The notes under the pieces are model-generated. The model saw nothing but the letters and a program-made list of their open reading frames with translations, searched no databases and had not been told where the DNA came from. This document shows, piece after piece, positions 3,460 to 37,276 of a stretch of 43,532 bases of DNA. How positions within the stretch are numbered: position 1 is the first letter of the stretch; each line of letters begins with the position of its first letter. This DNA comes from a virus. Lineage: Duplodnaviria > Heunggongvirae > Uroviricota > Caudoviricetes. Position numbers and translations under genes: made by a program. The stretch lies in the IMG/VR virus record IMGVR_UViG_3300024268_000012; one strand, 5' to 3'.

Positions 3460-3473
3460 TCTCTCTCATATAC

Positions 3474-8659: not shown

Positions 8660-8660
8660 T

Positions 8661-8689
8661 TTGACAACTTCAAAAAGAAATGGTATAAT
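8661..8689 (+). promoter_or_regulatory. Sigma70-type promoter P3 (TTGACA-N17-TATAAT, extended TG)
   Basis: TTGACA 8661-8666, TGGTATAAT with TATAAT 8684-8689. Confidence 0.7.
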
Positions 8690-9883: not shown

Positions 9884-10632
9884 TGATTATGATCGCCGGC
9901 CCATGCGCCGTGGAAACTGCGACTGACACTTATAAAATCGCAGAGGAATTAAGTAAATATGATAAAAAAATCATTCTGCGTGGCGGTTGCTGGAAACCCC
10001 GCACTAGACCAGATTCCTTCCAGGGGCTCGGAGAGGTCGGCGTTGATATGCTTGTTGCTGCGTATGAATTATATGGACTACAAGGGTGCTGTTTAGAGGT
10101 AATGAGTAAAAAACATTTGGATTATGTTATTAATCATTATCCAGAAAAAAACATTATTCTTCAAATTGGCTCTCGTAATATGCAAAATTTTGAACTACTT
10201 AAATTAGTAAGTTCTTATTCTAAGGAATATGGTAATACAGTACTTCTAAAGCGAGGCTTTGGAAATACCGTTGATGAAATGTGTGGAGCGAGGGATTATT
10301 TACAGCATGACAATGTTATCTTATGTGAGCGTGGTATTAGGACTCTGTCTGATGCTAGTCGTTTCACTTTGGATTTGTCCGCCATCCCTGTGTTACAGCA
10401 AAAAACTGGGTGTCGAGTTATCGTGGACCCATCCCACGCTGCTGGAGAGAGAAGTCTGGTATCCGGATTGGCACGGGCTGGTATCGCCGCAGGAGCAGAT
10501 GGCTTGGAAATTGAGGTAAAATCAATGTTTGCCAAGTGTCCGCGTAAATGCGATGAAGCACAAGCTCTCCCCATAGATGAATTTTATGTTTTAGCACATG
10601 TGTGTGAAGATATTGACAAAATCTTAAAATAA
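9883..10632 (+). CDS. DAHP-synthase/KDO8P-synthase family (type I-beta) aldolase
   Basis: ATG overlaps the previous stop (TAATG). 'IAGPCAVET', 'RGGCWKPRTRPDSFQGLGEVG' and 'DPSHAAGERSLVSGLARAGIAAGADGLEIEV' match conserved DAHPS/KDO8PS motifs (GPCSVES; GGAFKPRTSPYSFQGLG; DPSH...GADGL.IEVH). Confidence 0.7.
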   Translation: MIMIAGPCAVETATDTYKIAEELSKYDKKIILRGGCWKPRTRPDSFQGLGEVGVDMLVAAYELYGLQGCCLEVMSKKHLDYVINHYPEKNIILQIGSRNMQNFELLKLVSSYSKEYGNTVLLKRGFGNTVDEMCGARDYLQHDNVILCERGIRTLSDASRFTLDLSAIPVLQQKTGCRVIVDPSHAAGERSLVSGLARAGIAAGADGLEIEVKSMFAKCPRKCDEAQALPIDEFYVLAHVCEDIDKILK

Positions 10633-10641
10633 TAATATAAG
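10613..10641 (+). promoter_or_regulatory. Sigma70-type promoter P6 (TTGACA-N17-TATAAG), inside the 3' end of the aldolase gene
   Basis: TTGACA 10613-10618, 17-nt spacer, TATAAG 10636-10641. Upstream of the DUF262 gene. Confidence 0.5.
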
Positions 10642-10652
10642 AGGTATATAGT

Positions 10653-11657
10653 ATGCAATATGCTGATAGCAAAAATTTATTTGACCAACTATCTGAAGAT
10701 TTTTCCAGAAAGTGTACAACAACTTCTCAGCCTATTAATTATCTAAAATTCTGTAATAACAATGGCCAAATTAATACTGATTTGGATATTCAGCGAGGTT
10801 ACCAATGGGATGAAAAACGTCAGCAAGAGATGTGGAACAGTTTGCTGCTTAATGCTCATATTCCTGAATTCCATGCATTAATCCGCAATGATATTTACGA
10901 CATTATTGATGGTAAACAGCGACTATTAACGATCTTTAAAATCATCAATGATGAAATTCCTCTGAAATACAGCTATGCAGGTCCCGAGCTGCACTGGCTT
11001 TTTACTCAAGGAAAAAATAAAGATGCTCTTGTCCGACAGATTAATTTTTCTTGTTTACCAAAGGAGTTGCAATATCGTATTTATAATACTACGATTTTGA
11101 TTACTACTTACTCTAATCTTGACAGAGATGAACAAATTATGCTCTTTAAAAAAATTAATAATGGTAAAGCATTAAGTGATTTTGCAAAAGGATTGTGCGA
11201 AAATTTCTTTATCCGCAAGGATGGTACTGCTGAAATGCTAAAGCATTCTGTGTTTAAAAATTCAGAATGGAAAGATGAAGAACAAGAGGCAATTGAGAAA
11301 GCGTTAGTTCGCTTTATGATTCTTAAGCATAAAAATATGGTAGTTTCTCTAGAACCCACAAAGATGATTAGTTACTATCCTGAATTTGATCGTGACGTAT
11401 TAAATTTGAGCGTTAAGCAAGTAAATGCTGTCTTAGATCGTATTCCCACTTTGCATAAAATTCTTAAATGCCGCGCTTGGGAATCTTATTTTCCAGCATT
11501 TTTAATAGTAGTTGATCGTCATCCTGAGCTTACAGCAGAACAAATTGACACCATGCTTGTAAAAATTCGTTCTTGTACTGCTGGGCGCGGAGCTGATTTA
11601 AGAGCCAGTATTGTTGCTGAACGCATCGACACTGTAGAATCTTTAATTGACAATTAA
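10653..11657 (+). CDS. DUF262 (ParB/Srx-like nuclease domain, GmrSD N-terminal-type) protein
   Basis: 'DIIDGKQRLLTIF' matches the DUF262 DGQQR-type motif. 334 aa, with own promoter P6 and RBS aagagg. Confidence 0.55.
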   Translation: MQYADSKNLFDQLSEDFSRKCTTTSQPINYLKFCNNNGQINTDLDIQRGYQWDEKRQQEMWNSLLLNAHIPEFHALIRNDIYDIIDGKQRLLTIFKIINDEIPLKYSYAGPELHWLFTQGKNKDALVRQINFSCLPKELQYRIYNTTILITTYSNLDRDEQIMLFKKINNGKALSDFAKGLCENFFIRKDGTAEMLKHSVFKNSEWKDEEQEAIEKALVRFMILKHKNMVVSLEPTKMISYYPEFDRDVLNLSVKQVNAVLDRIPTLHKILKCRAWESYFPAFLIVVDRHPELTAEQIDTMLVKIRSCTAGRGADLRASIVAERIDTVESLIDN

Positions 11658-15563: not shown

Positions 15564-15784
15564 TGAACGAGAAAGTGATGAAGTGGCGATCGTCGCCACT
15601 TCATCGTAAATGTATTTTTTGTAAACACTTAAAATTTATAACCATACCGGCTCATCTGCCATGTAATGATTACTATAAATGTGTTGCTAAAGACAAATAT
15701 ATTGATTATTGTTTGCCAGATATGACAAGAGCTCCAAGACCGTTTTGTAAATTATTTGAATTAAATACGGAGATAAAAGAATGA
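15560..15784 (+). CDS. Small Cys-rich protein, translationally coupled to dnaE
   Basis: ATGA overlap with the dnaE stop. 74 aa with 'CIFCKH...CNDYYKC' cysteines. Its stop overlaps the next start (ATGA). Confidence 0.45.
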   Translation: MMNEKVMKWRSSPLHRKCIFCKHLKFITIPAHLPCNDYYKCVAKDKYIDYCLPDMTRAPRPFCKLFELNTEIKE

Positions 15785-16377
15785 AATATATTGTAGCACT
15801 TATTGGCAAGGCAGGAGCGGGAAAAGATACAATTGCTCAGGGCTTAGCTACACTCAATCCTGACTGGAATATGATTGTCTCTTGTACAACCCGCCCTCGT
15901 CGAGAAAATGAAGTTGAAGGTATCAACTATTATTATCTTACAAATGAGGAGTTTGCGCAGAAAGTACTGAATGGCGATATGCTTGAAGCTACTTATTTCA
16001 ACGATTGGCATTATGGTACTATGGCTTCTTCTCTTCACGAAGGTGTAAACATTGGTGTTTTCAATCCTGAAGGCTACGATTGTCTTACAGAGATGGGCGG
16101 CGGAGAAATCAAAGTTATTGGCTTCTATATCAATAGCGATGATAAAACTCGTCTACTGCGCCAGCTTAATCGCGAAGAAAACCCTGATGTTCATGAGATC
16201 GTCCGCCGCTTTAGCGCAGATGAAGAAGATTTTTATGATATTGATAACGATCCAGACTATCCTGTATATGTAATTCAAAATGGAAGAGATACTTCTCTAC
16301 CATATGTTGTACATGAAGTCAATAAAATCATTCACGCGGTTCTAGATATTGTGCCTCTTGTGGGCAGTCATGAATAA
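15781..16377 (+). CDS. Guanylate kinase-like nucleoside monophosphate kinase
   Basis: P-loop 'LIGKAGAGKDT'. 'SCTTRPRRENEVEGINYYYLTNEEF...EATYFNDWHYGT' parallels Gmk 'TTRxPRxGExDGxDYxF...E.A.F.GN.YGT'. Confidence 0.75.
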   Translation: MKYIVALIGKAGAGKDTIAQGLATLNPDWNMIVSCTTRPRRENEVEGINYYYLTNEEFAQKVLNGDMLEATYFNDWHYGTMASSLHEGVNIGVFNPEGYDCLTEMGGGEIKVIGFYINSDDKTRLLRQLNREENPDVHEIVRRFSADEEDFYDIDNDPDYPVYVIQNGRDTSLPYVVHEVNKIIHAVLDIVPLVGSHE

Positions 16378-20025: not shown

Positions 20026-20256
20026 ATGAAGTATTTGCTGAATGTTGTTGAAACTTACCGTGTTGATACCGTAGAAGAGGCTCTGGCTATGCGCGATGAA
20101 ATGGCCGCAGCTCATGAATATGAACTTCAGTCTTTCCAGTATACTACCAAGTTTAATAAAAAGACTGAAGAAGAGTATCAGGTTGTAAAAGCTAAGAAGG
20201 TTATCAATAGTGAAAAGGAACCCAATTGTGGGGTAATGGTGCGATATGAATATTGA
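20026..20256 (+). CDS. Hypothetical protein
   Basis: 76-aa ORF with RBS ggaggaag. Its stop overlaps the next start. Confidence 0.45.
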   Translation: MKYLLNVVETYRVDTVEEALAMRDEMAAAHEYELQSFQYTTKFNKKTEEEYQVVKAKKVINSEKEPNCGVMVRYEY

Positions 20257-20836
20257 TGCGACTTTTGAAAAGATTAGTAAATATGCTGATGACAACTTGG
20301 TCGTCATCCCAACTCGCAAAACTGCCGAGTCAGCGGGGTACGACTTTTGTGCAGCAGAAGATACGATAATTCCTCCATTTGTTGAGATGGTCGAAGATGC
20401 AATGCTTGAGGATATTAACTCTCGCAAAGCGCAGTATGCCGATGTAAAAGAGTTTATGGCAGCTGAATACCCTTATACTCTCGACAAGATTGCGGCGATC
20501 ACTAAGCAGTATGATGCTAAGGTCGCTCTTGTGCCAACTGGTATTAAGTGTAAGATTCCGGGTGGTTATTATCTTCAGCTAAGTGTACGTAGTTCTTTGC
20601 CGCTTAAGCACTGGTTGATTCTGGGTAATGGTGTTGGTATCATCGACGCGGATTATTATAATAACCCAGATAATGAAGGACATATTTATTTCCAGATCAT
20701 TAATCTGTTACCGGTTCCCATTAAGATTCAGAAGGGTGAATGCTTCGGTCAGGGTGTTCTTCTTCCTTATGGTGTTGCTACTGGTGACAATGTAACCGCT
20801 ACTCGCGAGGGCGGATTCGGTTCTACCAATGGGTAA
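20246..20836 (+). CDS. dut: dUTPase / dCTP-deaminase family protein
   Basis: 'GVGIIDADYYNNPDNEGHIYFQIINL' resembles dUTPase motif 3 (G.IDxDYRG). The beta-jelly-roll family length (196 aa) fits. Confidence 0.7.
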   Translation: MNIDATFEKISKYADDNLVVIPTRKTAESAGYDFCAAEDTIIPPFVEMVEDAMLEDINSRKAQYADVKEFMAAEYPYTLDKIAAITKQYDAKVALVPTGIKCKIPGGYYLQLSVRSSLPLKHWLILGNGVGIIDADYYNNPDNEGHIYFQIINLLPVPIKIQKGECFGQGVLLPYGVATGDNVTATREGGFGSTNG

Positions 20837-21317
20837 GATTATATTAGCTTTAGATCAGGCCACTCGCGACAGCGGGTGGTCTATCTTTGATAATGGAGAA
20901 CTGATCGACTTCGGCCACTGGAGTTTCTCCCACGACGACGTAGCAATGCGTATCCATAGGCTTTGCTAGGAAATTGAGAAGAAAATTGAGGAATATGAAC
21001 CAGAGCTCATCGCTATTGAAAATATTTAGCTACAGTAGAACGTAGAGATGTTTCAAAAGCTAGCTTGGGTTCAAGGTGCTTTAATGCGCACCTGCGTTGC
21101 AAAAGGAGTTCCATATTAGTTAGTTCGTCCGTCCGAGTGGCGTGCGGAATGTGCTTTCCTTAAAGGCAATGATAAACATAGAGATAATCAAAAAAAAGTT
21201 GCGCAAACCTGGGTAATGGAAACCTTCGGTAAGAAATGTACGCAAGATGAATCGGATGCGATTTGTATTGGTTATGCTCTATCTAAACAAGAGGATAACA
21301 ATTGGGATTTTGAATGA
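20829..21317 (+). CDS. RuvC-like Holliday junction resolvase, read through 4 in-frame TAG codons (TAG recoded as sense, probably Gln)
   Basis: ATG overlaps the dut stop. 'KIILALDQATRDSGWSIF' is the RuvC/A22 N-terminal Asp motif and 'LIAIENI[TAG]L' is the catalytic Glu motif. The frame stays open to TGA at ~21315-21317 only if TAG at 4 positions is translated. No ORF is reported here by standard-code translation. Confidence 0.7.
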
Positions 21318-22712: not shown

Positions 22713-22903
22713 TTTATCCCTCTTTTCTGGAAGTTGTCTCTATCACTTCCATTATATAATGAAAATGCCGATAGATCCGTTGGTCACATTTGTCTCGTGG
22801 TAACTATGAGGATTACCCCTCTGGATGAAGGGTGCATTAGAAGATGTAGTCACAGGCAAGCTCTCTGTCTCGCGTCAAGGACACTTCTAACAACGACAAA
22901 AAA

Positions 22904-22925
22904 GGGAGACCTTTAAAGGTCTCCC
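22904..22925. terminator. Bidirectional rho-independent terminator at the end of the - strand late operon
   Basis: Perfect palindrome GGGAGACCTTTAAAGGTCTCCC preceded by A6. Just 3' of the last late gene (22932). Confidence 0.7.
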
Positions 22926-22931
22926 TGTTAA

Positions 22932-23336
22932 TTAACTAGCAGCTGCAAGCTTATTTACTTGTACCTGGGCTTCAATCAAAGTAGTCAAGTACTGATCGAA
23001 ATCTCCAAGGGCACTAGCAAGATACTCTTTAGCATCATCTGTAAGAATGGCTAAAACCGCACTCTTAGTCATTTCAAAAGCTTTCTTCTGTGCCTCAGGA
23101 TCAAAAGCATTTTGACCCTTAAGAGCATCTACATATGTTTGAGTTGTGGTTAAAACGCAATCGGTTACAGTCTCCTGTAACATAAGCACATACTTATCAT
23201 GCTTATCATTATCAACACGATTAATCAACTCGTTGCTCTTAGCATTAATAAACTTAATAAAATAAGTGCTCAATACAACCAAGAGCGGAATGATTACTAG
23301 TTCAAAAATTTGTTGAGCCATTTCCATCCATTCCAT
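22932..23336 (-). CDS. Lysis-associated membrane protein (one N-terminal TM; holin-like)
   Basis: 134 aa with N-terminal hydrophobic helix 'IFELVIIPLLVVLSTYFI' and a helical remainder. It is the last gene of the - strand late operon before a bidirectional terminator. Confidence 0.5.
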   Translation of the reverse strand: MEWMEMAQQIFELVIIPLLVVLSTYFIKFINAKSNELINRVDNDKHDKYVLMLQETVTDCVLTTTQTYVDALKGQNAFDPEAQKKAFEMTKSAVLAILTDDAKEYLASALGDFDQYLTTLIEAQVQVNKLAAAS

Positions 23337-23348
23337 AAAAAGACCTCC

Positions 23349-23702
23349 TTATCCGCAAGACTCCTCATCAGTCTCAGGATCTTGACCTACTTGCTCACGC
23401 AGTAGGGCTGTAATAAGTTTTCTTTGTGTGTCTAACTTAATTTCATTTTCAGCTTTTGCTTTATATGAATAAAAACCGGTCACTGTCGCACACTCAGCAA
23501 AGACCGCGGGAATTAGGTACATAAGCGCATCAATGTTATTAAAATACCACATTGCAATGCAAGAAAAGATGGTGATGGCAAGAGTGACAGCGCAAACTGC
23601 GATCACAAGAATTTTGCTGAAAGACCATTTCTTCTCCACCTTGGGAGAAAAAATGGTTTCAACATATTGAGTAGTCGCGCTTTTAATTCTGCGAGGAATC
23701 AA
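23349..23702 (-). CDS. Two-TM small membrane protein (holin candidate)
   Basis: 117 aa with two hydrophobic segments ('ILVIAVCAVTLAITIFSCIAMW', 'LMYLIPAVFAECATVTGFY') and a charged C-terminus. It lies directly downstream of the endolysin. The start codon is uncertain (TTG/ATT). Confidence 0.5.
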   Translation of the reverse strand: MIPRRIKSATTQYVETIFSPKVEKKWSFSKILVIAVCAVTLAITIFSCIAMWYFNNIDALMYLIPAVFAECATVTGFYSYKAKAENEIKLDTQRKLITALLREQVGQDPETDEESCG

Positions 23703-25673
23703 TTAAGCAACCGCCTTTGCAAGAGCTTCCCAAGTCTTGGGACCGCAAATGCCATCGACCTTAATATTTACTTTCTTCTGGAATGCGCGAACTGCATTCA
23801 CAGTTTTAGTGCCATAGTCACCATCAATACCATCTTTATTTTCGCCATAAGTACCAAGATCATATCCAAGTTTCTTCAAATTAGTTTGAAGAATTTTTAC
23901 ATAATCATTTTCAGCGCCTTTACGGATTGTTGGATATTTACTGAAATCAAGAGAAGGAGTGATTACGTTTTCATTATCATCATCAGAATCATCCTTACCT
24001 TGCGCAGCTTGAAGCTTTTTAAGAAGTTCTGCATCAACAATACCATCTGCCAAGATGCCATTATCACGTTCAAATTCTTTAACTGCAGTTGCGGTTTGAG
24101 AACCAAACTGACCATCAGCCTTATCTTCAAGTTCATATCCCAAATCCATTAAGATTTCCTGAAGTTCTTCAACATCAGCGCCAGTCATACCTTCTTTCAA
24201 AGGTAGACGCTCGCCAAGATCATAATCAGTCTTTTCGCCATCAAAAACAAGGAATGTATTCATAACATAACCATACTTGCCGTCAAAATAAGTTTTGCTC
24301 CAAGTTTCTTCACGCTCGTAAACATTAACCTTCTGGCCTTTAGGAATGCGAGCAAGAATGGACGCAGAGGTTGATTTGCCAGCACGCAAATTGAGTCTTC
24401 CAGAGACTGTAGTTACTACCGCAGTAGCAATAGGCTTAGGAGCTTCTACTTCTGGTTCTTCTGCTTTATATTCTCCAGATACGTATTTAATACCCGGAAA
24501 TTCATACCAATCAGTCCAAGGACGTTTATTTAAATCGGTAATGATAATACCCTTAGCAAACCCATAAGCTTCAACAACTTTACCATTACCAATATAATAG
24601 CCAACATGACCATCCTTGCGCACAGCAAGCCCAGGCACTTCTGGGATAGTTGCAATCTTACCATATTTTAAACCCTTGCTCTTGGCATAAGTGAACATAC
24701 TATTTGCAGATTTATCAGGGCAGTTATTTCCATATTTACTCTTGAAGGTCTTATCAGTACCAATAGATTCGATAACACCTTCACCGCCATAAGTCCAATT
24801 GTATCCTTTACCAAGTCCCACACAATCAGCAGAAACCATCTTCTTAGAAATGTGAGATTTATATGTAGCAGTACGATCACTACCATAATGAGAAGGATAT
24901 TGATTAGTTTTACTCTTTAAAGTAGAAGTTGTACATTTATATACACAAGTGCCATACCAATATGGCTGGCCAACCATTGCTTTCAAAAATTCTACAAAAT
25001 GTAAGTTAGTATATTTTTCATATTGAGACATAACATTCCCTCCTTGGGGTTTACCTTCCGTCGTCCCGACGATAGGTTCGCTCGGTTGGGTTACCACTAC
25101 CTCGCCATAATTCTTGCGAATTTCTGTACCTGGATAGTAGAATGCCAAAATTTCATCATATTTAACACCAATAGAAGCTGCATACTTAGCGCCGGTTTGA
25201 CTCATACCAACACCATGTCCATTCTTCTTGCCCTATGAGACGGCATAATCCCACGGGTCTTCTTGGGCGATTAAATATGCTCGCTTTCCGCCCCACTTTT
25301 CCTCACTTGAGTAGGTGCGGCCGCCGTTCATAGCACTGTAATGTGCATTTGTAACGATCTTGTTATTATAATAAAGAACTTCACCCTTCGTCTCTTCAAC
25401 TGCTTGATGTGCTCTTGCATATGAATTAGAGAAGCGTGAAGCGCGGAATGCCTAATCTGTTGAGGATTTGTCGCTAATAGATCCTTTACTCTAATAGCGA
25501 TATAAAGCGAAAGTGCGGGCCGCAACAGCTTGAGCTTTACCTGCTTCAAGAGCAGCATTACCTACTTCTGCGGGAACCACACCTTTTAGATATTCTTCAA
25601 TATCAATTTCAATTTCATCTTTACCATAATAGTCAAGATTTTCGGAGCGAGTAAGTTTTACTTTAATTAGCAT
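23703..25673 (-). CDS. Endolysin: SpoIID/LytB-like domain + Cys/His-containing central domain + two PG_binding_1 repeats; read through 3 TAG
   Basis: ORFs 25491..25673 and 23703..25205 are in the same frame (offset 468 nt). The span between them is open except for TAG at ~25491, ~25452 and ~25232. The N-terminus 'EEYLKGVVPAEVGNAALEAGKAQAVAARTFALY...GHGVGMSQTGAKYAA' is a SpoIID-type domain. The C-terminus has two 'DGxFGxxTxxAVxxFQ' peptidoglycan-binding repeats. RBS aaggagg. Confidence 0.8.
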
Positions 25674-25687
25674 GCTTATTCCTCCTT

Positions 25688-25722
25688 AAAAAAAGAAGAG
25701 GGTTGTTTATTACAACCCTCTT
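25688..25722 (-). terminator. Terminator after the rSAM operon (- strand)
   Basis: Stem GAGGGTTGT/ACAACCCTC with short loop. A-run on + (= T-run on -) at 25688-25695. Lies between gene 25727 and the endolysin start 25673. Confidence 0.6.
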
Positions 25723-25726
25723 TACA

Positions 25727-26041
25727 TTATTCAACAATCTTCTTTAAGCGAAGATTTACTTCACGACGGTCAATTTCTTCATTCATGGTATCAAACAAAG
25801 TATCAATCTTGAAATTATCAACCACATCGTACAAGAGCTCACCGTTCTTATCAAAAACATGTACAGCCTTAATAGTGATACCAACATAAGACTTAATATC
25901 TTCGATGGTGTCTGCAAGACTAGCTGCTGTGTTATCAAGGTAGCAGTTAAAATCATTGCCGAGCTCGCCATTTTCAATATGGCTATAATTTACGCTACGA
26001 ACGTCATAACGTGTTGCAGAATCGTTGAAACTAATAAACAT
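25727..26041 (-). CDS. Hypothetical protein (last gene of the rSAM operon)
   Basis: 104-aa ORF, 16 nt after the 226-aa gene, followed by a - strand terminator hairpin. Confidence 0.5.
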   Translation of the reverse strand: MFISFNDSATRYDVRSVNYSHIENGELGNDFNCYLDNTAASLADTIEDIKSYVGITIKAVHVFDKNGELLYDVVDNFKIDTLFDTMNEEIDRREVNLRLKKIVE

Positions 26042-26057: not shown

Positions 26058-26738
26058 TTAGTTTGCTGGTGGAGGTGGTGGAGGCGGGGGAGGATTACAT
26101 CCACACTCCTCGGGTTTACTTCCATTCCAATCAGAGTTTTTTGGCCCTTCCTCAGGCTTTACTAAACCAAGCGCAGTTAAATAAGTTTGAGAAAGGCGAA
26201 GAGAAGCAGGACGAGACTGACGCCAAGATCTGAGTTCTTTAACAATGCTAGAAGAAGCTTGCATTAATTCAAGATAACCAGCGCCCATTTGTGCCAATGT
26301 ATATGTTGGCGCAAGAGTGTCTTGAATCAAACCAATGCGCTGGGCAATAGTCTGACTACGTTCATCTTCTGGACCATTAGACAATTTAAAGTCTAAATAG
26401 TTACCAAATACAGAGCAATATTGATGAACAATCGCGCACCAGGCACTCATAAAATCATTCCAGGGAAGCTTATCCTCAGTAAGAATAAGAGTTGGAAATT
26501 CATGTTCAATACGAATGAACATGTCTAAAGTGTCCTGAGAAATTGTAAATGCACCATCGTCCTCTCCCGGTTCCCAAGCTGTGATGGCATCAATTTGCTC
26601 CAATACTCTAATCATAATTAATGAAAGTTGCGGCTGAATGGCTGTTAAAATACGACCAATAGGACCCAAAGTATCAATTTCTTTCATCACATGATAGCGG
26701 GCCTCGCCATAAGAAAAATTACGAATTTCAGTTAACAT
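26058..26738 (-). CDS. Hypothetical protein with C-terminal Cys-Gly-Cys + Pro9 tail, coupled to the rSAM enzyme
   Basis: 226 aa. The start overlaps the stop of the upstream rSAM gene by 11 nt. The C-terminus is '...KPEECGCNPPPPPPPPPAN'. Confidence 0.55.
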   Translation of the reverse strand: MLTEIRNFSYGEARYHVMKEIDTLGPIGRILTAIQPQLSLIMIRVLEQIDAITAWEPGEDDGAFTISQDTLDMFIRIEHEFPTLILTEDKLPWNDFMSAWCAIVHQYCSVFGNYLDFKLSNGPEDERSQTIAQRIGLIQDTLAPTYTLAQMGAGYLELMQASSSIVKELRSWRQSRPASLRLSQTYLTALGLVKPEEGPKNSDWNGSKPEECGCNPPPPPPPPPAN

Positions 26739-28116
26739 TTAACTCCGTTACCTCCTCAAGATATTTGAATTGCACTTTCTTTTCTTCAGACAAATCTCTC
26801 CAAACTACACTCCACACCCCATGTTCTTGTAGCCATTTCATTTCAGTATAAATCATAGCATGAGCTACTGCACATACAGTAGGAATTGGAGTAATTAAAT
26901 TACGAGTGCATTCATATTGAGCACCAAGACAGGTGCCAGTACATAATTCATTAATAGGACATTGCGCACAATGCGGCAAAGATGCTTTATGCATAGAATA
27001 TGTTGAAATTAACAATTCCGGATTGATGCATTCAAATTTCAAAATTTCTTTTTCATCAGGCACCAATTTACCATAATACATATCTTCATATCCTGTGCGG
27101 TGACATGGATACATCATTAAGTCACTTACACGTAATGTAAATTGGCTTTGAATACCGCAGGTAAGACCACGTCCACAAGTTGTTAAAGGCTGACTAAACA
27201 TATTAAAACCATTTGCTTTAACTAACCAGCCTGCCATAGCATATGGATCTTTATTAATTTTATTTTCCCATACCCAATCAAGAACAAATCTCATAAATTT
27301 ACACAAAGACTGAACTTGATCATAATTCCATTCTTCATTGCGGACATGCAATAAATACAGGCTCTCCCATGGGATATTGTGTTTTTCCATCATTTCTTGG
27401 AACCACAAGAAATTTTGAGGCCATGCATCAATATTTCTACTATATACCATTGGATGCAAGCCACCATGAATCATATGAGAAAATTGAAATGCACGATCAT
27501 AGTACTCGTCATCTCGCACACCACCACCCAAATCCACATCTAGATCATGTAGATAAGGACGATTGTCTTCCATATATTTTCCATCAAAACTCGCACTAAG
27601 ACCTAGAGTAATACCTATACTTTCGAATTTAGCATGAAGTTCTTTTACTCTTGCAGTTGCTTCTTCAGAACACACAAAAGTAAAATTAGTAGGAATTACA
27701 ATTTCAATTGGACGATATAAAGGATCTAAATCCTTAAAATGTTCATAAATAGTTTCTAATACTTTATATCCAACTTCTTGAGCTAATAATTCACCAGAGA
27801 AAATTTCAATGTTAGCGTTCCAATCATTATGAGTGTACCATTGTAAAATAGTTTTTAGATTTTCAATAGTACGCTCTTCGTTGAAACAATCTTCACTAAA
27901 AATCTTTTTGCGATGACGATGTAAATAACAATATCTACAACCTAAATTGCAACGCGGTGAAATAATTAACTCAATATTTTTCATTTTCTGATCTCTTGGG
28001 GTATCAATAGAGAAATCATCATAAAAATATTTCTCAATTACCCAAGCGCCCAATTCATGATTTTCTTTTTGATATTGAGACAAACCAGTATCATTTACAT
28101 TGCAATGCTCGGCCAT
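26728..28116 (-). CDS. Radical SAM enzyme with C-terminal SPASM-like Cys cluster (peptide/protein-modifying type)
   Basis: 'ISPRCNLGCRYCYL' CxxxCxxC. The C-terminal region has 'CHRTG...C...CAQCPINELCTGTCLGAQYEC', typical of SPASM auxiliary Fe-S clusters. 462 aa. Confidence 0.8.
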   Translation of the reverse strand: MAEHCNVNDTGLSQYQKENHELGAWVIEKYFYDDFSIDTPRDQKMKNIELIISPRCNLGCRYCYLHRHRKKIFSEDCFNEERTIENLKTILQWYTHNDWNANIEIFSGELLAQEVGYKVLETIYEHFKDLDPLYRPIEIVIPTNFTFVCSEEATARVKELHAKFESIGITLGLSASFDGKYMEDNRPYLHDLDVDLGGGVRDDEYYDRAFQFSHMIHGGLHPMVYSRNIDAWPQNFLWFQEMMEKHNIPWESLYLLHVRNEEWNYDQVQSLCKFMRFVLDWVWENKINKDPYAMAGWLVKANGFNMFSQPLTTCGRGLTCGIQSQFTLRVSDLMMYPCHRTGYEDMYYGKLVPDEKEILKFECINPELLISTYSMHKASLPHCAQCPINELCTGTCLGAQYECTRNLITPIPTVCAVAHAMIYTEMKWLQEHGVWSVVWRDLSEEKKVQFKYLEEVTELNVN

Positions 28117-29507
28117 GGTTTCATCGCTCCTCTATTTACTAAAATTTTATAATATCGCATCATTTCTTCCACAGCACCATTGCCTAATAAACGCAAATAA
28201 CTGCAAGGTACAATAGAAGGATTAGTTGTATAGTCTTCCTCAACGCCAATATGACAATATAATCCACAAGTCATCATAAACATTAATAAACGATCATCTT
28301 CATTATATGCATATTTACTGTTGATTTGTCCAGCGCAAGCCATTGTTACAGCCATTTGATCAAAGAAATATTTTCTAGACATAATATCGGCATGGAAAGA
28401 CATAGAACCATAAGTGCGTTTCATCCAAACCTTATCATTAGTATTCATATTACATCCACTTTGCATTGCATGCTTAGTCTTCATTTTTTCATCAAGAGCT
28501 GCATTACGACAGAGACGATTACAAGTATAAATATTTCCTTCATGATCAATAGTAATATTATTCTTACTAGCGGAACAAGAATAAGAATTTTCTTGTGTCG
28601 CAATAGGATTGCCAGCTTCTGCTTGGAAAAATACTTCAGGTCCATTAAATAATTGACCAAAAAGAGGGCGACCATCATAGCAAGGTTTATCTTGTACATT
28701 TACTCTCGGTAAAAAGCTAAGCCATTTTGCAAATGTCTCACCATCTTCTTGAGTATAATAGCCTGGGTCAACCAAAGTTGGGCAACCCGCAATTTGTAAA
28801 CTAATATTTTTTTTACCTTCAATTAATTTATCGCATTCAACTTGTAAATCATTGAAGAATTTATAATACCAGTTAAATGAATCAATTCCTCTCTCATTCA
28901 TAATTTTCATATAACTAACATCTAATGTAGCTTTAGTATTAATTACAAGAGAGAAATATTCCATATCTGCAGGACAACGAGTTAAAATTTCTTTCATAGT
29001 TTTAATTGTGCTCGCAGTCGCTCCAGGATGACGAGAATCATCATTAAATTCAGGTGGACCATCTAAAGACATTTGAAGATTAAAAGTGATTTTACGTTTG
29101 TGGTGAGTTGCATAAACCATCATTGGCAAGAAAAAATCTTCATAAATGCGATCGCCCAAAAGAGCATTAGTAGAAAACATTACATCTTTAGCATTTGGAT
29201 AATAGTCAAATAATGCTTCAAATGTTGCTCGCCAGTACTGACTATTAATTGTAGGTTCTGCGCCCCACAAACTTACATTTTCAATAGCATCACGGATGCC
29301 TGCGGTGACACGTTTAACATTTTCTACAAAAGTTCCATCTTCAAGTGCTTGACGAATATCTCTATTATAAGAAGCCATGCACTTTTTTTCTTTTTCAATA
29401 TAACAATATTTACATGCCATATTGCAATCTGATGACCAGTGTAGGCTGACGCTGGCTATATTAGCCAGCGCTTCGCCTAAATAATCAAGAGAAGGAATTT
29501 GTTTCAT
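28095..29507 (-). CDS. Radical SAM enzyme with C-terminal SPASM-like Cys cluster (second, paralogous maturase)
   Basis: 'SSDCNMACKYCYI' CxxxCxxC. Later 'CSASKNNITIDHEGNIYTCNRLC...GCNMN...CAGQ' and 'CGLYC' cysteines. 470 aa. Overlaps the downstream rSAM gene by 22 nt. RBS gaggag. Confidence 0.8.
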   Translation of the reverse strand: MKQIPSLDYLGEALANIASVSLHWSSDCNMACKYCYIEKEKKCMASYNRDIRQALEDGTFVENVKRVTAGIRDAIENVSLWGAEPTINSQYWRATFEALFDYYPNAKDVMFSTNALLGDRIYEDFFLPMMVYATHHKRKITFNLQMSLDGPPEFNDDSRHPGATASTIKTMKEILTRCPADMEYFSLVINTKATLDVSYMKIMNERGIDSFNWYYKFFNDLQVECDKLIEGKKNISLQIAGCPTLVDPGYYTQEDGETFAKWLSFLPRVNVQDKPCYDGRPLFGQLFNGPEVFFQAEAGNPIATQENSYSCSASKNNITIDHEGNIYTCNRLCRNAALDEKMKTKHAMQSGCNMNTNDKVWMKRTYGSMSFHADIMSRKYFFDQMAVTMACAGQINSKYAYNEDDRLLMFMMTCGLYCHIGVEEDYTTNPSIVPCSYLRLLGNGAVEEMMRYYKILVNRGAMKPWPSIAM

Positions 29508-29528: not shown

Positions 29529-31022
29529 TTAATTCGAGTAATTTCTTGAATAATAATTACTAGTATAATTACCAGTTTTATTGCCAGAATTATATGTAGA
29601 ATAGTTACCAGACTTATAAGTGGTATGATAACCTGTCTTATAGCTAGTATAATCCGCGGTATCATAACTATGATTGGTGCCATTATGAGAACTCTTGGCG
29701 CCACTGTCATTAGAAGAATAATAACTTCCATGATGGGAGGTATAATCCGCGCTATCATAGCTATAATTACTCGTTTTATAAGTTGTATAATGCGTTTTTG
29801 CGCTTGCATTATAACCACCATGATTACTTGTGTAATCTGCACTATCGTGAGAATATTTTCCACCATAGTGAGTAGTATAATTTGCGCCTTTTGCAGATGC
29901 ATTATAAGTAGCAAAATTGCTGCCATTATATCCGGCATAATGAGTGTACTTTCCACTGTTATATCCAGTATAATCTCCACCATTAGCAGATGCGTAATAT
30001 GAGCCTTTGTGCGTAGCATAGTTTGTGCTATGATAGGCATAATTACCACCATTGTGGACGGAATAATGTGCATTTGCTGTTGTATAATATCCGCCAAAAT
30101 TATTAGTATTATAAGAACTTAAGTGACCAACTTTTTCACTCTAATAATGTGTACTATTATGACCAGATTTATGTGTAATATAATATGTTTCATAATGAGC
30201 AGTATTTTGCCCAGTATAATGATTAACATAATAAGAAGTTTTTACTGTGGCATTATAATTAGTATAGTTTGCAGTATCATAAGTTACATAATGAGTAGTA
30301 TAATATGTGGCATTATTTGAAGTATTGTAGCCTGCATAATGGCTATATTTTTGCGCACCATTATGTGTATCAAATTCAGTACTAAATTGATTACCAAAAT
30401 GATCTGGACAATGTGAAGTATTATAAATTTGATAGTGCGTAGTATAATAATTAGTATAATACGCTTTATGGTTACTACTATAATCCGCAGACTTATGAAG
30501 ACGATTGCCCGTATAATAAGTTCCATGGAACTAATAATGAGCACTCTTATACGTTACATAATTTGTTGTATTATGTTCATAATTTCCACCAAAATAAGAA
30601 TAATAATGAGTACCATTATGAGTAGTATAATAATCTGCATAATGATTCGTATAATAACTTGCATTATGACCATATCGATGACTGTTAAAATACTCAGTAT
30701 AATAAGAATTATGCCAAGCTGTCCAGTTATTAATATCATATCCGGTATAATAATTTACTAAATGCCCTGTATAATAAGCATCATTATATCCAGATTTATG
30801 ACCTGATTTATAAGATGAAAGATGCCCGTTATAATATGTACCTTTTTCACCATTGTGATGGGTAGCATAATGTCCACTATAATGTGAACTTAAATGTCCG
30901 CTCAAGTGCCCTGAATAATATGCAGGGCAATGAGCAGCTTCTTGGGCCTAAATTGCAGTTAATGGATTATTTAAGTCAGAAGGAATAATTTTATTTCCTT
31001 TGACTGCTGTTGAAGTCGCCAT
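29529..31022 (-). CDS. Giant Tyr/His/Ser/Thr/Asn/Gly repeat protein B (putative rSAM substrate), read through ~3 TAG
   Basis: ATG at 31022 with RBS ggaggaa. The Y/H-rich frame (e.g. ORF 30531..30905 'GHLSSHYSGHYATHHNGEKGTYYNGHLSSYKSGH...') continues on both sides across TAG codons to TAA at ~29529, 20 nt before the rSAM start. Length is 1494 nt, divisible by 3. ORFs in other frames here are low-complexity artefacts. Confidence 0.65.
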
Positions 31023-31044: not shown

Positions 31045-32661
31045 TTAAGTTACAGTAACATTATGCGATTTATTACCAGCACGATAAGCGGTATAATTAG
31101 AAGTATTATAAGTGCCATAATTAGCAGTATAATAACCTGTCTTATAATTACTATGGTTACCACTATTATAACCACTCCAGTGAGAATTACGAGCAGCATT
31201 TTGACCACTATTATAAGAGCTATCATGTCCACTCTTATTACCTGAATAATGACCACTATTATATCCGCTCCAGTGAGAACGCTGTGCAGTTAAATTAGAG
31301 TTATTATATGTTGCATAGTTACCGCTTAAATGACTTGTATAATAACCACTATTATAACCACTCCAATGATTATTATAAGTGGAATAATTTGAACCATTAT
31401 GACTGGTGTAATGACCACTTAAATGTCCTGTATAATTACCATTATTTTCAGAGCTTCTATGAGAAGTATATACAGTCTTATTATGATTAGTGTAATGCGT
31501 AGCATAATAACCACTTAAATGCCCTGTATAATCACCTGCATTGTGAGATACATAATGAGCTCTATAACCAGTTTGATATCCCATATTATGACTAGAATAT
31601 CGTCCTGTATAATGAGTAGTATAATTATTACTATTATAAGTTGAATAATGATTATTTTTTCCTGTGTATTGAGCAGTATAATTAGAGCTTAAATAGCCAG
31701 AATTGTATCCAGTATAATTAGCTGCATCACGACTAGTGTATTGAGTACCATTATGCCCTGAATAATGCGTTTTTTGTCCTGCTTTATTTGTACTATTATA
31801 GGTCGAATAATGAGTTGTATAATTAGTAGTTTTTGCTCCACTATTATAGGTGGAATAATGAGAGCTTCTGTGAGCATAATCATATGTTTCAAAATGACTA
31901 TCATAAGCAACAGCACGGTGAGATTTTGCTCCAATATGATAAGTGGTATATTGAGTACCGTAATAGCCAGTATAATGACTATTTTGATTAGTATAATGAC
32001 TATAATAATAATTATTATAATTAGTACTCTTATAAGAACTATCATGTGAACTATAATAACCACTATAATATTCTGCATTATGACTTTCAAATTCTGCCGC
32101 TCTATGATAAAAATGACTTTTTTCAGTAGTATTGCGAGTTGTATAATGAGTTGCATAATAAGTAGCATTTCTACCGCTGTAATGTGGAGCAAAATACGTA
32201 TTATAATGAGCTTCACGATGAGCAGAATAATAAATACCACATGCTGCCCAGTTATCAAAATATTGCCAATTACTATGATGAGATCCATAGAAATCGGAAT
32301 TATGAGTTGTATAATAGCTACTATAATGACTACTCTTATAACTACTTTCTCTGCCGCTATAATATGTTGCATTATATGAAGTATATTGTGTTGCATAAAC
32401 CGTAGATTTATGCGCATTTAAATATCCTGCATTATAAGCGGCACAACCGTAATTGATAGAACCAGCTTGGCTATCAATAACATCCGATAATTCTTTAGGC
32501 GAATTATAATTTAATTTAGAATTATAAACTGCAATAGGATCATGTTGCCAATTATATTTGGCTAAACCCAATTTATCAGTTCTAAAATTATCAATTCGAT
32601 TTCGAACTAATAAATAATCAGAATATGCAGTTTTCTAACCCGTTGAAACTGGTACCGCCAT
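31045..32661 (-). CDS. Giant Tyr/His/Ser/Thr/Asn/Gly repeat protein A (putative rSAM substrate), one TAG at codon 9
   Basis: ATG at 32661 with RBS ggaggg. 'MAVPVSTG[TAG]KTAYSDYLLVRNRIDNFRTDK' continues into the ORF-track 508-aa ORF 31045..32571. About 538 aa, >85% S/T/N/G/Y/H. Repeats such as 'HWSGYNSGYYTSHLSGNYATYNNSN'. Confidence 0.7.
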
Positions 32662-32690
32662 TCGTTCGCCCTCCTTTATCTCTATAAAAT

Positions 32691-32720
32691 ATTATAACAA
32701 AAATTTTTATCTATGTCAAA
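32691..32720 (-). promoter_or_regulatory. Consensus sigma70-type promoter (TTGACA-N17-TGTTATAAT) for the Y/H-repeat + rSAM operon
   Basis: On the - strand: TTGACA (revcomp of 32715-32720), 17-nt spacer, TTTTGTTATAAT with TATAAT = revcomp of 32691-32696. Immediately 3' of a terminator hairpin and ~30 nt upstream of ATG 32661. Confidence 0.65.
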
Positions 32721-32753
32721 AAAAAATATGGCCGCAATTAAGCGGCCATATTT
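32715..32753 (-). terminator. Terminator after the tail-fibre gene (- strand), immediately upstream of the rSAM-operon promoter
   Basis: 9-bp stem TATGGCCGC/GCGGCCATA with AATTA loop (32727-32750). The + strand A9 run (32718-32726) gives a T-run on the - strand. Confidence 0.65.
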
Positions 32754-32941
32754 ACTATAAAATTTTAACATAAAGTTAAAATATATATATTCACATTTAC
32801 CGCAATCACCATGGGTTGCGTGATGTGGGATTTATCGGACAACATTCAAAATTTAATGTCTATGAAGTAATAGATAAATACCACCAAATCTGTTAAACAG
32901 CAATTTTTCAATCAATTGGTGTGTATTTTATATAAAAATTA

Positions 32942-35900
32942 TTAACGAACTTTAATCCAGATTCGTCCATTTACTTCAACATTACCAGTGCCCCAAGTCT
33001 CATAATTAGGGATTTCAGAAACAGTGCCAACAATACGATCAGGATACATCATAATTTCTTCTCTTGTCATTAAACTAACAGTGCCATTCGGACCAGTACA
33101 TACTGCTGCACCAAGAGGATAAGAATTTCTATCTTCATAAGTATATGCTAAAGCACGTCCAGCAACCGCCAAAGGAGTTTTACATTCGTTTGTTTCACCC
33201 ATAGCAGAACCAAAAGTATCAGATACAATACTTGCCCCAGCCTACAGTCTCTCTGTTGAAATTTTCATTTCTCCAGAAATATCTTCTATTACCACTCGGC
33301 CTGGCTCAACTGTTTCTGCTTTTCTAAATTCAGCATAGTCATTCCAAACAGCATTATATACTTTAGTACCATAAATAGCTCCAGCAACACCAAGACCACC
33401 AGATACTTTTAATGCACCAGAAGTAGTATTTGTTGCTGCGGTAGTATTTGTAATAGATACTACACCAGTAAATGTTTTAGTACCAGCAAAAGATTGTGTG
33501 CCGGTAGTTACAACGCCAGCTTGATTTGTTGCAGCATTAGGAACATATAATGTAGCAACGCCAGTGCCAGTAGCAATACTTAATCCACCAGTATAAGTCG
33601 GAGTATGATAATAGTTAGTGTTAGTATTTGGATTTGCTGGCATAGTTACCTTTAAGTCTACTCCAGCGACAGTACCAATAGTACTTGTTTGTCCCCATGC
33701 TAAAGTAGGGCCGCTATTAGTTACCGCTTTCCAAGAAGGAGCGGCAGAAGAGCCACCACTTGTTAAAATCTAACCCGCAGTTCCTGTACCCAAAGAAGCA
33801 AGAGCAGAAGAACTTGATGCATATACTAATCCATATGCTGTCCAAGATGTTTTTCCAGTACCGCCGTGACCGACCCCTAAAGTGCCAGTAATACCAGGAC
33901 GTGGGCTCGCCGCAAATACGTTAGCCGCGGTAGTAGAGCCAAGATTAACCAACATGGATGGATTTGAAGTAATTCCAGTACCACCATAAGCTACAGCAAG
34001 AGCATTGGTTAATTGTAAAGTAGGAATGGAGGTTGTACCATAAAATGTTACATCTTTATTATCCATTCCAATTCGCATTGCATTATTAAAAGTTGCTTCT
34101 GTGCTGGTGTTAGTTCCAGAACCAGAGGTTTGAAGCACAAAATAATTTGCATTAGATGATCCAGTTCCTAAAACACCCGCACGCCATTCTGCCCCATAAT
34201 TGGTAGTTTGATGTTCCCAAATAATAAACTTATCAGTATCACCAGTTAAAATACGAATATCGTCATTAAAGGTTTTTGCACCAGCAAATGTTTGCGCGCC
34301 AGTGGTGACAACGCCTCCTTGCGTAGCATTTGCTGCATCAAGCGTAACAGTTCTATTTTTTCCTGCGACAGTAATAGATAAAGTTTCACCATTAGCTCCT
34401 GCAGTAGAACTAAAGTTGCTAAATAGTGAGCTCGCATCACAAGATGTTATTATACCACCGTTTAAATAAACTGGTACACTTGCACTACCAGCTGTTCCAG
34501 TTAATGCTTTAATTTCACCACTAGACATATAGACAGGCTGAGTAGTTGAACCAAGAGTGGAGGATGATGCTGTTAATGTACCAGCATTTAAGAAGATTGG
34601 TTTTGCGCTTGCACCAACACTGGCGCCAGAAGCCTTAATTATACCATCTTCCATATAAATTGGTTTAGTCGCGCTACCAATATCTGAGGTAGACGCTGTG
34701 ATTGTACCACTATTTAAAAATACTGGATTATTAGATGCACCAACAGTAGAGGACGATGCTGTTAATGTACCAGCATTTAGATACATAGGAACAATACCAG
34801 ATCCAACCGTAGAAGTGGATGCTGTTGCTGCACCATCTGCTGCGATATATACAGGCTTTACTCCAGAACCAATTGCAGTATCATTGGTATGAACTACAAA
34901 CTGATATCCCGTAGTAGATGCTGCGACATTAGGTAAATTAAATACGTTACTATTCGCCGTACCAGAATCAATGCGAACGTCATAATCAGCAGTAGAAGCA
35001 TTGGTCTTATGAAAGTCTAAATAACGACCAATTTCACTTACACCAGATCCATTAACAGTAACAAAACCATTGTTAAACCATGCGCCAGATTTTGGTAAAG
35101 TAATAGTAATAGTTTCATCCGCGCCCTTATTGGTATGACCATAAGTATCAACAGTAATCTGCGGAATGGCAAAAGAGGTTGCGGCTCCAGTTAATGTTGT
35201 AACAGTATTGCCGCTAGTATAACCACTACTTGGTCCCTTCTTAGCATGCTTTGCGTCATAGGTGACTCCGTTAGTTCCAGCAGTACCAGTTAAAACAACA
35301 ATATCATCATCTGTTGCTGTTGCACTAATATTAATCTATACATTCTTTTTAGTGACAGTAATTTTACCATTGGTATCTTGGCTAATAGTATCAATAAAAG
35401 CGGATGCATTACCTGATGTACCTGGGCTAGACACAGCAGTTTGAAGAACCTTGTAGCTACCTTCATCACCAAGCAATTCCCAGCGACTATTGTAACTATT
35501 CCAAACATATTCTTTTGTGCCATAAATAACCACATCGCCAGCTAAACGATCATCGGGCCAAGTATATCCAGAAATTTTAGGATCAGTATTACTTTGATTT
35601 GTGATAGCTACGGTAGCAACACCGATATAATGCATTGCATTTGTTAAACCAAGATTAATACGTAGCTGCTCGGCAGTAATTGAACCTCCAAGAGAAACAC
35701 TTGTGCCTGCAATATTAACTGAAGAATTAACTAATTTATTATTAGCAATTGATCCCGCTAACATAGCATTGGTAACTTTACCAGTGCCAATAGTAGTAGT
35801 GATGTTCCAATCGGCACTTCCATTAGAAGAGCCTGTGCCACCTACGTCTCCACTTAAAGTAACTGCTCGTGATGCATTAAGTTTAGAAGCAGAAGTGGCA

Positions 35901-37276
35901 TTACCACTGAATGTAGTTGCATATACAGTTCCTTGCGCATAAATATTCTTCCATCTAGCAGTATCTGTACCAAGACTATATGTATTATGTGCAGAAGGAT
36001 TAATATGTTGAGCAGTGGTAGTTCCACCAATTGTAGCACCACTCGCACCAATTTCTGCCTTTTTAGCAACAATAGTTTCACCAAATGTTGCACCACCAGT
36101 AACGGTTAATGCTTGTGTAGCATGATTACTACCAATAACTGCTGTTCCAGTACTTGTTAACTTTGCAGAAGCAGTAATATATGGAGCAGAAATAGTGCCT
36201 TCAGAACTAATATTTCCAACCGCTGCAATAGTAGAAGATGCACTTATAGCACCAGTAAAAGAAGATGTTTCAGTTACAGCAAGAGTGCTTTGTAATGTGG
36301 TTGCGCCAGTTGCTTTTAAAGTTCCATTAGCAACAATATTTTTTAAATTTGCAACGCCAGCTCCACTAACATAATATGTTGTACCACCAAAATATAAAGA
36401 AGTGCCTGACGCTACAGTTGTTTTATTATTTAAAGCTACTGTATTAGTAAAAGTAGTAGCTCCATTGAAAGCCGCAGTTCCAGAGGCGGTCAAATTAGAA
36501 GCAATAGCTACAGGAACCGCTGCGATGTTTAATGTATTTGTTGTGTCAGAAAGAGTTTGATAAATAATAAATTGAGAGGCTTTATTATCAAAGATACCTC
36601 TTGTTACAGAAGTTGCTTTCATTTGCCATCCATGAGAACTGTTTTTCACATTAACATAAGCATCTCCACTAGAAGTGTTGATTGTTAATGGACCAGTCAT
36701 CGTATCGCCATCAATATTCACATATAAATCATCTAAAGCAGCTTCACAGTTTGTTAAAAAATTATTAACTGTTAAAATCGGACTATTATTGTGATATAAA
36801 TTGCTAGCATCACTTGTATATAAATACAACCCTCCAACTTGAGGATTTGTAGATTCTGCCAAACTTAAAATTGCCTTACCAGCGCTATCTTTAATAGCTT
36901 GCCCACTACTAAGAGTGACACCAGAAGACAGAACAGGGGAGGACTTAAAAGTCTTCACTCCATAAATTTCTTGAGCAACTAAGCTCAAAACACCAGAATG
37001 GTCTGATGAAGCATATGGCAATTCTCTAATTGCCTCTTGACCACCAACTTCTAATTTAATACAGCTGGCTTTTTCATCGTCGCCATCTGCTTTCACAAAA
37101 GTGATTACAGGCGCACCTGTTAATAAATCTGCGTACTAAGCATTTAACGGCACTCTCTCTGTGGCAGTATCAATATAAAACTTACCATTATCAGGAGTAA
37201 AATAAGCATAACCTTCAGTTATTTTTTGATTACCTAAGCTTGCCGCAGGACCTTTAAAAATCTTAAAAAGAGCCAA
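32942..37276 (-). CDS. Tail fibre / receptor-binding protein (~1445 aa), read through 4 TAG codons
   Basis: ORF-track pieces 35336..37096, 33770..34786, 33242..33643 and 32942..33202 are all in one frame, joined by TAG at 35336, ~33690 and 33242. A further TAG at ~37137 extends the N-terminus to a TTG/RBS (ggggaggg) at ~37276. It ends at TAA 32942. It contains Gly/Thr/Ser/Ala-rich ~17-aa tandem repeats (YLNAGTLTASSSTVGAS-type). Confidence 0.7.
33770..34786 (-). repeat. Intragenic tandem ~17-aa Gly/Ser/Thr/Ala-rich repeats within the tail-fibre gene
   Basis: Six consecutive units of the type '(Y/F)(L/M)N(A/S)G(T/I)(L/I)TAS(S/T)S(T/D)(V/L/I)G(A/S)' are visible in the translated ORF (MYLNAGTLTASSSTVGAS / NNPVFLNSGTITASTSDIGS / KPIYMEDGIIKASGASVGAS / KPIFLNAGTLTASSSTLGST ...). 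Confidence 0.6.

Follow-up and report, generated by a model that had tools for sequence, protein, structure and literature searches.

In the uncultivated, stop-codon-recoded gut phage studied here, six genes, two of which code for radical SAM enzymes, separate the tail-fibre gene from the lysis genes, and the question was whether this cassette is a transcription unit of its own or a mere segment of the late region. A preliminary description had proposed an autonomous operon with an early-type promoter, possibly transcribed independently of the late programme. The analysed DNA (the window, 43,532 nucleotides, designated W; related loci carry L numbers) was matched in a 168-kb ENA contig and in an 82-kb Logan contig. 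On the features described below it appears fairly probable that the locus is the 5' boundary of a moron-like module situated between the tail-fibre and lysis genes of an approximately 168-kb TAG-recoded phage. The host is probably a member of Bacillota, as suggested by the promoter type, the GGAGG Shine-Dalgarno sequence, the SpoIID/SH3_3/PG_binding_1 endolysin and the occurrence of distant cassettes in Oscillospiraceae/Clostridia bins.

The last gene 5' of the module encodes the tail fibre (32942..37276, minus strand; 1444 aa, four in-frame TAG codons), whose C-terminus, NGRIWIKVR before the stop codon, was kept in all cassette-bearing phages examined. When the window was compared with L013, L014, L036, L040 and L045, the approximately 140 C-terminal residues (32942-33400, minus), ending in NGRIWIKV(R/K), were 48-66% identical among otherwise distant phages. 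This segment had no Pfam match and precedes the cassette in nearly all those phages. The tail-fibre stop codon is separated from a hairpin by 188 nt (32754-32941, minus) with no obvious ORF; W and L001 share this stretch, and L003 and L006 have a shorter, unrelated one instead. The terminator-like hairpin with its T9 tract occupies positions 32715..32753 (minus). Its arms AAATATGGCCGC and GCGGCCATATTT (32753-32724, minus) form a 12-bp stem with 6 G-C pairs around the loop TTAATT; the free energy is -19.9 kcal/mol (z = -5.9), and nine T residues follow the stem. A hairpin ending the tail-fibre transcript had been described at this place, but its stem had been given as 9 bp of GC.

The final T residues of the hairpin tail merge directly into a promoter of the sigma-70/sigma-A type (32691..32719, minus), composed of the -35 TTGACA (32719-32714), a 17-nt A/T-rich spacer, the extended -10 TGT (32699-32697) and the -10 TATAAT (32696-32691). 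It scored 12/12 plus the extended -10 TG, and has all the sequence elements of a primary-sigma promoter (TTGACA, spacer of 17 +/- 1, TGn, TATAAT). The predicted transcription start is at about 32685-32682 (minus), from where a short leader (32662..32684, minus) would extend to the gene of repeat protein A. The leader carries the Shine-Dalgarno sequence AAGGAGGG at 32676-32669, 7 nt 5' of the ATG at 32661; the distance between the -10 and this ATG is 29 nt. The TTGACA-N17 promoter ending in TATAAT and the ribosome binding site of repeat protein A were both in place as the preliminary description had stated. A riboswitch or leader RNA at the promoter was considered and rejected: the Rfam scan of the window gave nothing at the gathering threshold, and the sub-threshold matches at this position were hairpin-driven. 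An internal promoter for the enzyme genes was likewise rejected, the 10/12 matches within repeat gene B occurring at chance rate.

With the strict pattern TTGACA-N14-TGNTATAAT and at most one mismatch, 6 matches were found in the window against 0.06 expected; 0/100 shuffles reached 6 matches, and the enrichment over shuffles was 100-fold. A loose promoter scan returned 83 matches vs 80.9 in shuffled sequence. Each of the six strict copies lies within an intergenic stretch or at its end, and a start codon on the same strand follows 28-54 nt further on. The five on the plus strand (1073, 3500, 8661, 11647 and 19145) head sub-operons: one in which a MarR-like HTH gene comes first, a DnaB-containing block, a UvrD/PIF1-type helicase, PolIII-alpha and a block ending in dUTPase/RuvC. 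Six plus-strand matches had been reported; the sixth, at 10613 (TATAAG, without TG), is weaker and falls outside the strict pattern, which probably explains the count. An A-tract/T-tract spacer is common to all these promoters, and this spacer together with the shared pattern assigns the cassette promoter to the same class as the promoters of the replication genes. In the segment 24000-43532 it is the only 12/12 match with TG, and in the late region of about 27 kb, which has at least five hairpins, the only consensus promoter. Promoters of the class were also found 5' of extra tail-fibre-like or LRR-like genes in L048, L050, L051 and L059 and 5' of tRNAs in the L012 array, including tRNA-CUA. 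The term 'early-type' is thus too narrow: the kinship with the promoters heading replication sub-operons held, but tail-fibre-like genes, LRR-like genes and tRNAs of relatives carry the class as well.

Some further features of these regions may be recorded here. At 3473-3528 (plus) of the window the 3' arm of a hairpin enters the -35 of the promoter at 3500, and a similarly compact terminator-promoter composite was seen at the cassettes of L009 and L034 and before the tail-fibre-like genes of L050, L051 and L059. The motif ATATAT(G/A)(T/C)AAGGTTGA lies directly 3' of the -10 of the first window promoter (1102-1120, plus) and recurs in promoters of the L012 tRNA array (203-222, 1582-1600, 5169-5188 and 8651-8670). 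That array (L012 1-9200) has 24 tRNA genes, and its anticodon-CUA tRNA (5189-5281) starts 20 nt after a consensus promoter (5140). A perfectly palindromic hairpin of 13-15 bp (window 15575-15607) follows PolIII-alpha and scored as a terminator on both strands. The early region also encodes a DAHP/KDO8P-synthase-family protein, a GmrSD_N-like protein and a guanylate kinase (9823-11657 and 15781-16377, plus).

The six genes of the cassette are tightly spaced on the minus strand, with intergenic gaps of 22, 21, -22, -11 and 16 nt. The first two code for precursor-like repeat proteins. Repeat protein A (31045..32661; 538 aa) is rich in Y, S, N, T, H and G, has a strict 4-residue period and contains 75 [HY]-x-[ST] motifs vs 34 expected; its gene has the single TAG, at codon 9, that had been noted for the first gene of the operon. 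Repeat protein B (29529..31022; 497 aa; TAG at codons 25, 164 and 294) has the same strict period and 69 such motifs (34 expected), and an HCP motif stands at its leader/core boundary. A (G/H)-C-(P/A) motif ends the leader-like N-terminus of the repeat proteins, also in L013, L034, L036, L088 and L089. No Pfam or NCBIfam domain was found in either protein. Radical SAM enzyme 1 (28095..29507; 470 aa) and the radical SAM/SPASM-like enzyme 2 (26728..28116; 462 aa) are encoded without TAG by genes overlapping by 22 nt. Both have the CxxxCxxC radical SAM core, as CNMACKYC in enzyme 1 and CNLGCRYC in enzyme 2. The Radical_SAM model PF04055 matched enzyme 1 with 32.4 bits, above the cut-off, and enzyme 2 with 24.9 bits, under it. 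Enzyme 1 had no SPASM domain match, and all its matches to RiPP maturase models were far under cut-off; enzyme 2 reached 21.8 bits with the SPASM model TIGR04085, for which the cut-off is 27. The fifth gene, also TAG-free and overlapping that of enzyme 2 by 11 nt, codes for a 226-aa protein with a poly-Pro C-terminus that is kept in relatives (26058..26738), and the final gene of the unit for a 104-aa protein (25727..26041).

The 73 homologues of enzyme 1 were all metagenomic, none coming from an isolate genome. No match in GenBank phages was obtained by megablast with the late half of the window or by tblastn with enzyme 1; for the p197 protein there was a match in one unannotated GenBank phage record. 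Scanning IMG/VR with a single protein gave nothing, but a profile search did retrieve loci. PADLOC returned weak viperin-core matches only and PHROGs the generic 'radical SAM' only, a PDB sequence search gave essentially nothing, and nothing relevant was found in a literature search on phage radical SAM/tail-fibre cassettes.

At the 3' end of the unit a second terminator-like hairpin (25688..25722, minus) is present ahead of the endolysin, in agreement with the preliminary description. It has an 11-bp stem (25722-25696) and a free energy of -16.5 kcal/mol (z = -5.0), and is followed by T7 within CTTTTTTT; AAGGAGG and then the endolysin ATG (25673) come directly 3' of it. Both hairpins show the signature of an intrinsic terminator, a stable G+C-containing stem-loop and a U-run 3' of a stop codon. 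The position of the 3' hairpin was kept, with differing stems, in seven loci, including L003, L006, L008, L010 and L011. Beyond it lie the lysis genes (22932..25673, minus), coding for an endolysin (SpoIID + SH3_3 + PG_binding_1, 3 TAG), a 117-aa membrane protein and a holin. These genes have no promoter of their own: hairpin T-run and endolysin ribosome binding site succeed each other directly, here as in relatives, leaving no room for one, and none was found inside the 104-aa gene. At least five hairpins are spread over about 27 kb of late region (L043 1837-1864, 40215-40185, 32753-32724, 25722-25696 and about 22925), and just one of them, that at 32753-32724, has a promoter after it. Most of the late hairpin plus T-run elements abut the ribosome binding site of the next gene; the one at approximately 22900-22925 has a 219-nt gap. 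Since the lysis genes and others stand after hairpins without a promoter, late transcription must read through such hairpins, which may therefore be weak terminators or RNA-stability elements. Leaky terminators may account for the read-through, as may antitermination or a resistant polymerase. The cassette would then lack insulation, and we infer that it is at this point simply part of the late transcript.

Conservation of the boundary was studied in loci spanning radical SAM enzyme 1 identities from 91% to 36%. A promoter of the class (11-13/13) was found 25-35 nt 5' of the first precursor gene in all ten lineages in which the region was visible (W/L001, L003, L006, L009, L010, L011, L012, L034, L035 and L088/L089), and promoter spacers, flanks and 5' leaders diverge between the deeper lineages. 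The exact 29-mer promoter (one position T or A) also turned up, amid diverged flanks, in 2 metagenome contigs and in 9 of the loci fetched; it is common to the W, L003, L006 and L088/89 clades despite differing hairpins, leaders and even first precursor. The -35 has a hairpin and T-run ahead of it in W, L003, L006, L010, L012 and L088, the stems being unrelated or compensated. The -35 of L009 and L034 is inside the 3' arm of the hairpin (-23 and -22 kcal/mol), and the T-run is the spacer. Altogether a hairpin stands just before the -35, or overlaps it, in 8/10 lineages, and is weak or absent in L011 and L035. In phages with enzyme identities of 35% or less (L013-L015, L036-L042) the cassette comes a few nt after the tail-fibre gene, which ends in the same conserved C-terminus, and there is no promoter. 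The promoter is thus confined to a sub-family. Joint expression with the fibre gene may have come first.

Late regions of related phages were gathered from IMG/VR by anchoring on the conserved late protein p197, and 2 of the 43 carried the cassette. L045 has an empty site: the tail fibre ends in NRIWIKVK before the stop codon and is followed by 127 nt with one hairpin plus T7, and then by the ribosome binding site and the endolysin; the cassette is missing, and the whole of this strand is devoid of consensus promoters. L069 and L075, also without a cassette, pass from tail fibre to holin within 0.5 kb; all three phages have a lysis gene within 0.6 kb of the tail-fibre C-terminus. On the 275-kb contig L012 the cassette follows, with its promoter, the 24-tRNA array and has no adjoining tail fibre; this placement argues for a self-contained unit. 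Most of the cassette has a G+C content of 0.30-0.36 (the 3' end 0.40) vs 0.37-0.42 in the flanks, i.e. 5-9 points lower, partly due to the Tyr/Asn/Ser/His-rich precursors. The cassette-less relatives with tail fibre, hairpin and endolysin indicate that the unit is an optional, moron-like insertion, and the traits of a moron are found at the sequence level: a promoter and a terminator of its own, insertion between adjacent genes and a shift in composition.

In the endolysin alignment TAG columns pair mainly with Gln. TAG share was calculated as TAG/(TAG+CAA+CAG), using six lineages with TAG-free early genes. TAG accounted for 0/148 Gln-type codons in early genes, 1/273 in the four non-precursor cassette genes, 15/95 in the precursors and 58/374 in the immediate neighbours (tail fibre, precursors, endolysin, p117 and holin; precursors included). 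The difference between enzymes and neighbours gave P = 8e-14 and that between enzymes and precursors P = 8e-9, values to be read with the lineages not being independent. In the window the radical SAM enzymes and the 226-aa protein (26058-29507, minus) form a TAG-free island where the genome is otherwise richest in TAG. TAG is scarce, too, in the structural genes LRR, p589 and p197 (4/183; P = 0.16 vs enzymes), and the idea that TAG avoidance is specific to early genes was softened for this reason. In L010 and L034 the early genes have acquired TAG, and so have the enzyme genes. TAG in the radical SAM genes of L010, L012, L034 and L035 was at one point taken as proof of late expression; this argument was dropped, the dUTPase genes of L010 and L034 containing TAG as well. 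The overall pattern is compatible with enzyme genes kept readable before a code switch. Both precursor genes (one in-frame TAG in repeat gene A and three in repeat gene B, at the positions given above) would in contrast depend on the switch for full protein output. The CAA:CAG ratio is late-like in the cassette (50:10; early genes 96:129, late genes 88:34). No tRNA gene was found in the window, which places the suppressor elsewhere. Among 32 window genes checked, 27 stop with TAA, 5 with TGA and 0 with TAG. At 20246-21317 (plus), behind the promoter at 19145, a TAG-free dUTPase gene overlaps a RuvC gene with 4 in-frame TAG codons by 8 nt, and this split in code holds also in L006, L009 and L011.

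These features suggest the following scheme, which is read from DNA sequence with regard to initiation and termination, to timing, to a late transcription resistant to terminators and to which products are translated first. The upstream hairpin would halt ordinary transcripts coming from the tail-fibre gene. The host polymerase with its primary sigma factor would bind the promoter without a phage activator, made unnecessary by the perfect -35, the 17-nt spacer, the TG-extended perfect -10 and the A/T-rich discriminator, and could fire from the moment of DNA entry. The 7-kb polycistronic mRNA would open with a leader of some 23 nt that carries a strong Shine-Dalgarno sequence. The downstream hairpin would stop cassette transcripts at about 25690, so that the TAG-free holin gene and the endolysin gene stay silent. 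Late in infection, terminator-resistant transcription from far upstream would cross the hairpins, and the cassette would also be read through. A second layer of control may be exerted by the code, the enzyme genes being readable in the standard code and the precursors needing TAG suppression. That module and promoter are functional in this way we regard as rather probable. Firing ahead of the late genes is a closer question, on which we lean slightly to the negative side, and 'early' and 'independent of the late programme' are both inferences of ours. Against an early role stand the TAGs at codons 9 and 25 of the first two ORFs, which in the standard code leave about 3 kb of mRNA untranslated before the enzyme genes. 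The proposal of an autonomous unit was in this sense upheld in part: terminator, promoter, operon and terminator form a discrete series whose promoter is kept in relatives, but the hairpins must be read through late and the distant cassettes have no promoter. The scheme can be extended to one operon written in two genetic codes as a built-in timer, yielding the enzymes at once, which gives them time to mature, and the precursors after the TAG-to-Gln switch. The TAG-free enzymes and small proteins in five to six lineages, and the precursor TAG within the first 9-25 codons in this phage, would fit such a timer, and the overlapping dUTPase/RuvC pair would act likewise; we regard this extension as speculative and rather improbable.

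Other explanations of the promoter have to be weighed against this scheme. A functionless, chance promoter-like sequence in A/T-rich intergenic DNA might be suspected from the loose scans, which did no better with the window than with shuffled sequence; the excess of the strict pattern, the position kept over ten lineages with diverged flanks and the lack of the promoter at empty sites effectively refute it. More weight must be given to a promoter that is real yet not temporally distinct, an internal booster of the cassette mRNA in the late phase and, via a leaky 3' hairpin, of the lysis mRNA. The host primary-sigma polymerase would then be used throughout, and the hairpins would be partial terminators or 3'-end stabilisers. 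The need for TAG suppression in both precursors, the late-like CAA:CAG of the cassette, its deep linkage to the tail fibre, promoter-less in distant phages, the lack of any promoter for the lysis genes and the class promoters before tail-fibre-like or LRR-like genes of L048, L050, L051 and L059 are all in its favour. It leaves unaccounted for that such a promoter is missing from every other structural and lysis gene over about 27 kb, that the enzyme genes are TAG-free amid TAG-rich neighbours and that a perfect consensus promoter requires no late activator; we judge it unlikely, if a serious competitor.

Could the promoter chiefly serve the lysis genes, the 3' hairpin being an attenuator while the endolysin's in-frame TAGs are the real timer? 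The endolysin ribosome binding site does lie directly 3' of the hairpin, and endolysin genes have 3-15 TAGs across lineages. The empty-site phage L045, however, has the same lysis genes without the promoter, and in L012 cassette and promoter do not adjoin lysis genes, so this is very unlikely. Still less credit can be given to a moron of the classical lysogenic-conversion type, which a repressed prophage would express to its host's advantage. The moron definition (PMC3594210) would accommodate the promoter, the terminator, the shift in composition and the optional presence, but the window genes scanned included no module for an integrase or a repressor, the genome, of about 168 kb, has its own PolIII-alpha, helicases and NrdDG, all homologues are on phage-like metagenome contigs, and the precursors would not be translatable in a standard-code lysogen.

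In architecture the cassette with its promoter and hairpins comes closest to the morons of lambdoid phages (HK97 gene 15, lambda bor/lom; defined in PMC3594210). Like these, it has its own promoter and terminator, lies between late genes that are adjacent in relatives and differs in base composition. It is larger, six genes and 7 kb as against one or two small genes, and its carrier is a large, apparently virulent, TAG-recoded phage, to which the rationale of prophage expression does not apply. It is also written partly in the recoded code, and was inherited through a whole sub-family and not sporadically.

In phage T4, early transcripts of gene e (lysozyme) are made but are untranslatable, and the late transcripts alone are translated. 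The cassette would resemble gene e as a late function with transcription and translation uncoupled in time, but the block in T4 is an RNA hairpin over the ribosome binding site, and here it would consist of in-frame TAGs awaiting a suppressor tRNA. The closest regulatory idea is that late and lysis genes are timed by recoding (10.1101/2021.08.26.457843); there, code use was treated by genomic module and promoters were not mentioned. As in that work, TAG is read as Gln, is absent in replication genes and is present in structural and lysis genes. The difference is that the code boundary runs here inside co-oriented, packed blocks, between precursors and enzymes and between dUTPase and RuvC.

With regard to the products, the cassette may be compared with the HXS anti-phage system HxsD-B-C-A, 99.7% of which is in Pseudomonadota (PMC13128918). 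Common to both are an adjacent radical SAM pair, small accessory protein(s) and a repeat substrate of the His-x-Ser type. The HxsB model TIGR03978, however, gave at best 25.6 bits against a cut-off of 370, and there was no HxsC match. The substrates of the cassette are about 500 aa long with roughly 70 [HY]-x-[ST] units and have no peptidoglycan-binding or HxsA-type domain; the order is precursors, enzymes, small proteins, and the cassette is phage-borne with a probable Bacillota host. Neither HxsB/HxsC equivalog enzymes nor an HxsA-type substrate being present, it is not a member of HXS. With the radical SAM/SPASM maturases that form cyclophanes (YhhB, GrrM/OscB, FxsB, PapB) the enzymes share the CxxxCxxC core and a Cys-rich C-terminal region, and with their pathways the cassette shares a precursor adjoining the enzymes and short repeated aromatic-x-x motifs; unlike in those families, all matches of the enzymes to these models are under the curated cut-offs and the precursors are protein-sized. 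In the two-code reading, the product could be a phage-made, radical-SAM-cross-linked repeat protein acting at the cell envelope or on the virion, and superinfection exclusion would, by analogy with HXS, be one possibility for its role.

We know of nothing on the organisation of transcription in stop-codon-recoded phages, and the main survey of such phages does not mention promoters. The locus offers a conserved case, easy to clone, of one 7-kb operon on which a host-type promoter acts together with two terminators and in-frame TAGs, and would allow a test of whether translation is timed by recoding, independently of transcription. It also shows that a cassette of twin radical SAM enzymes and repeat proteins, not found in deposited phage genomes, travels as a self-contained unit and stays beside one particular C-terminal domain of the tail fibre.
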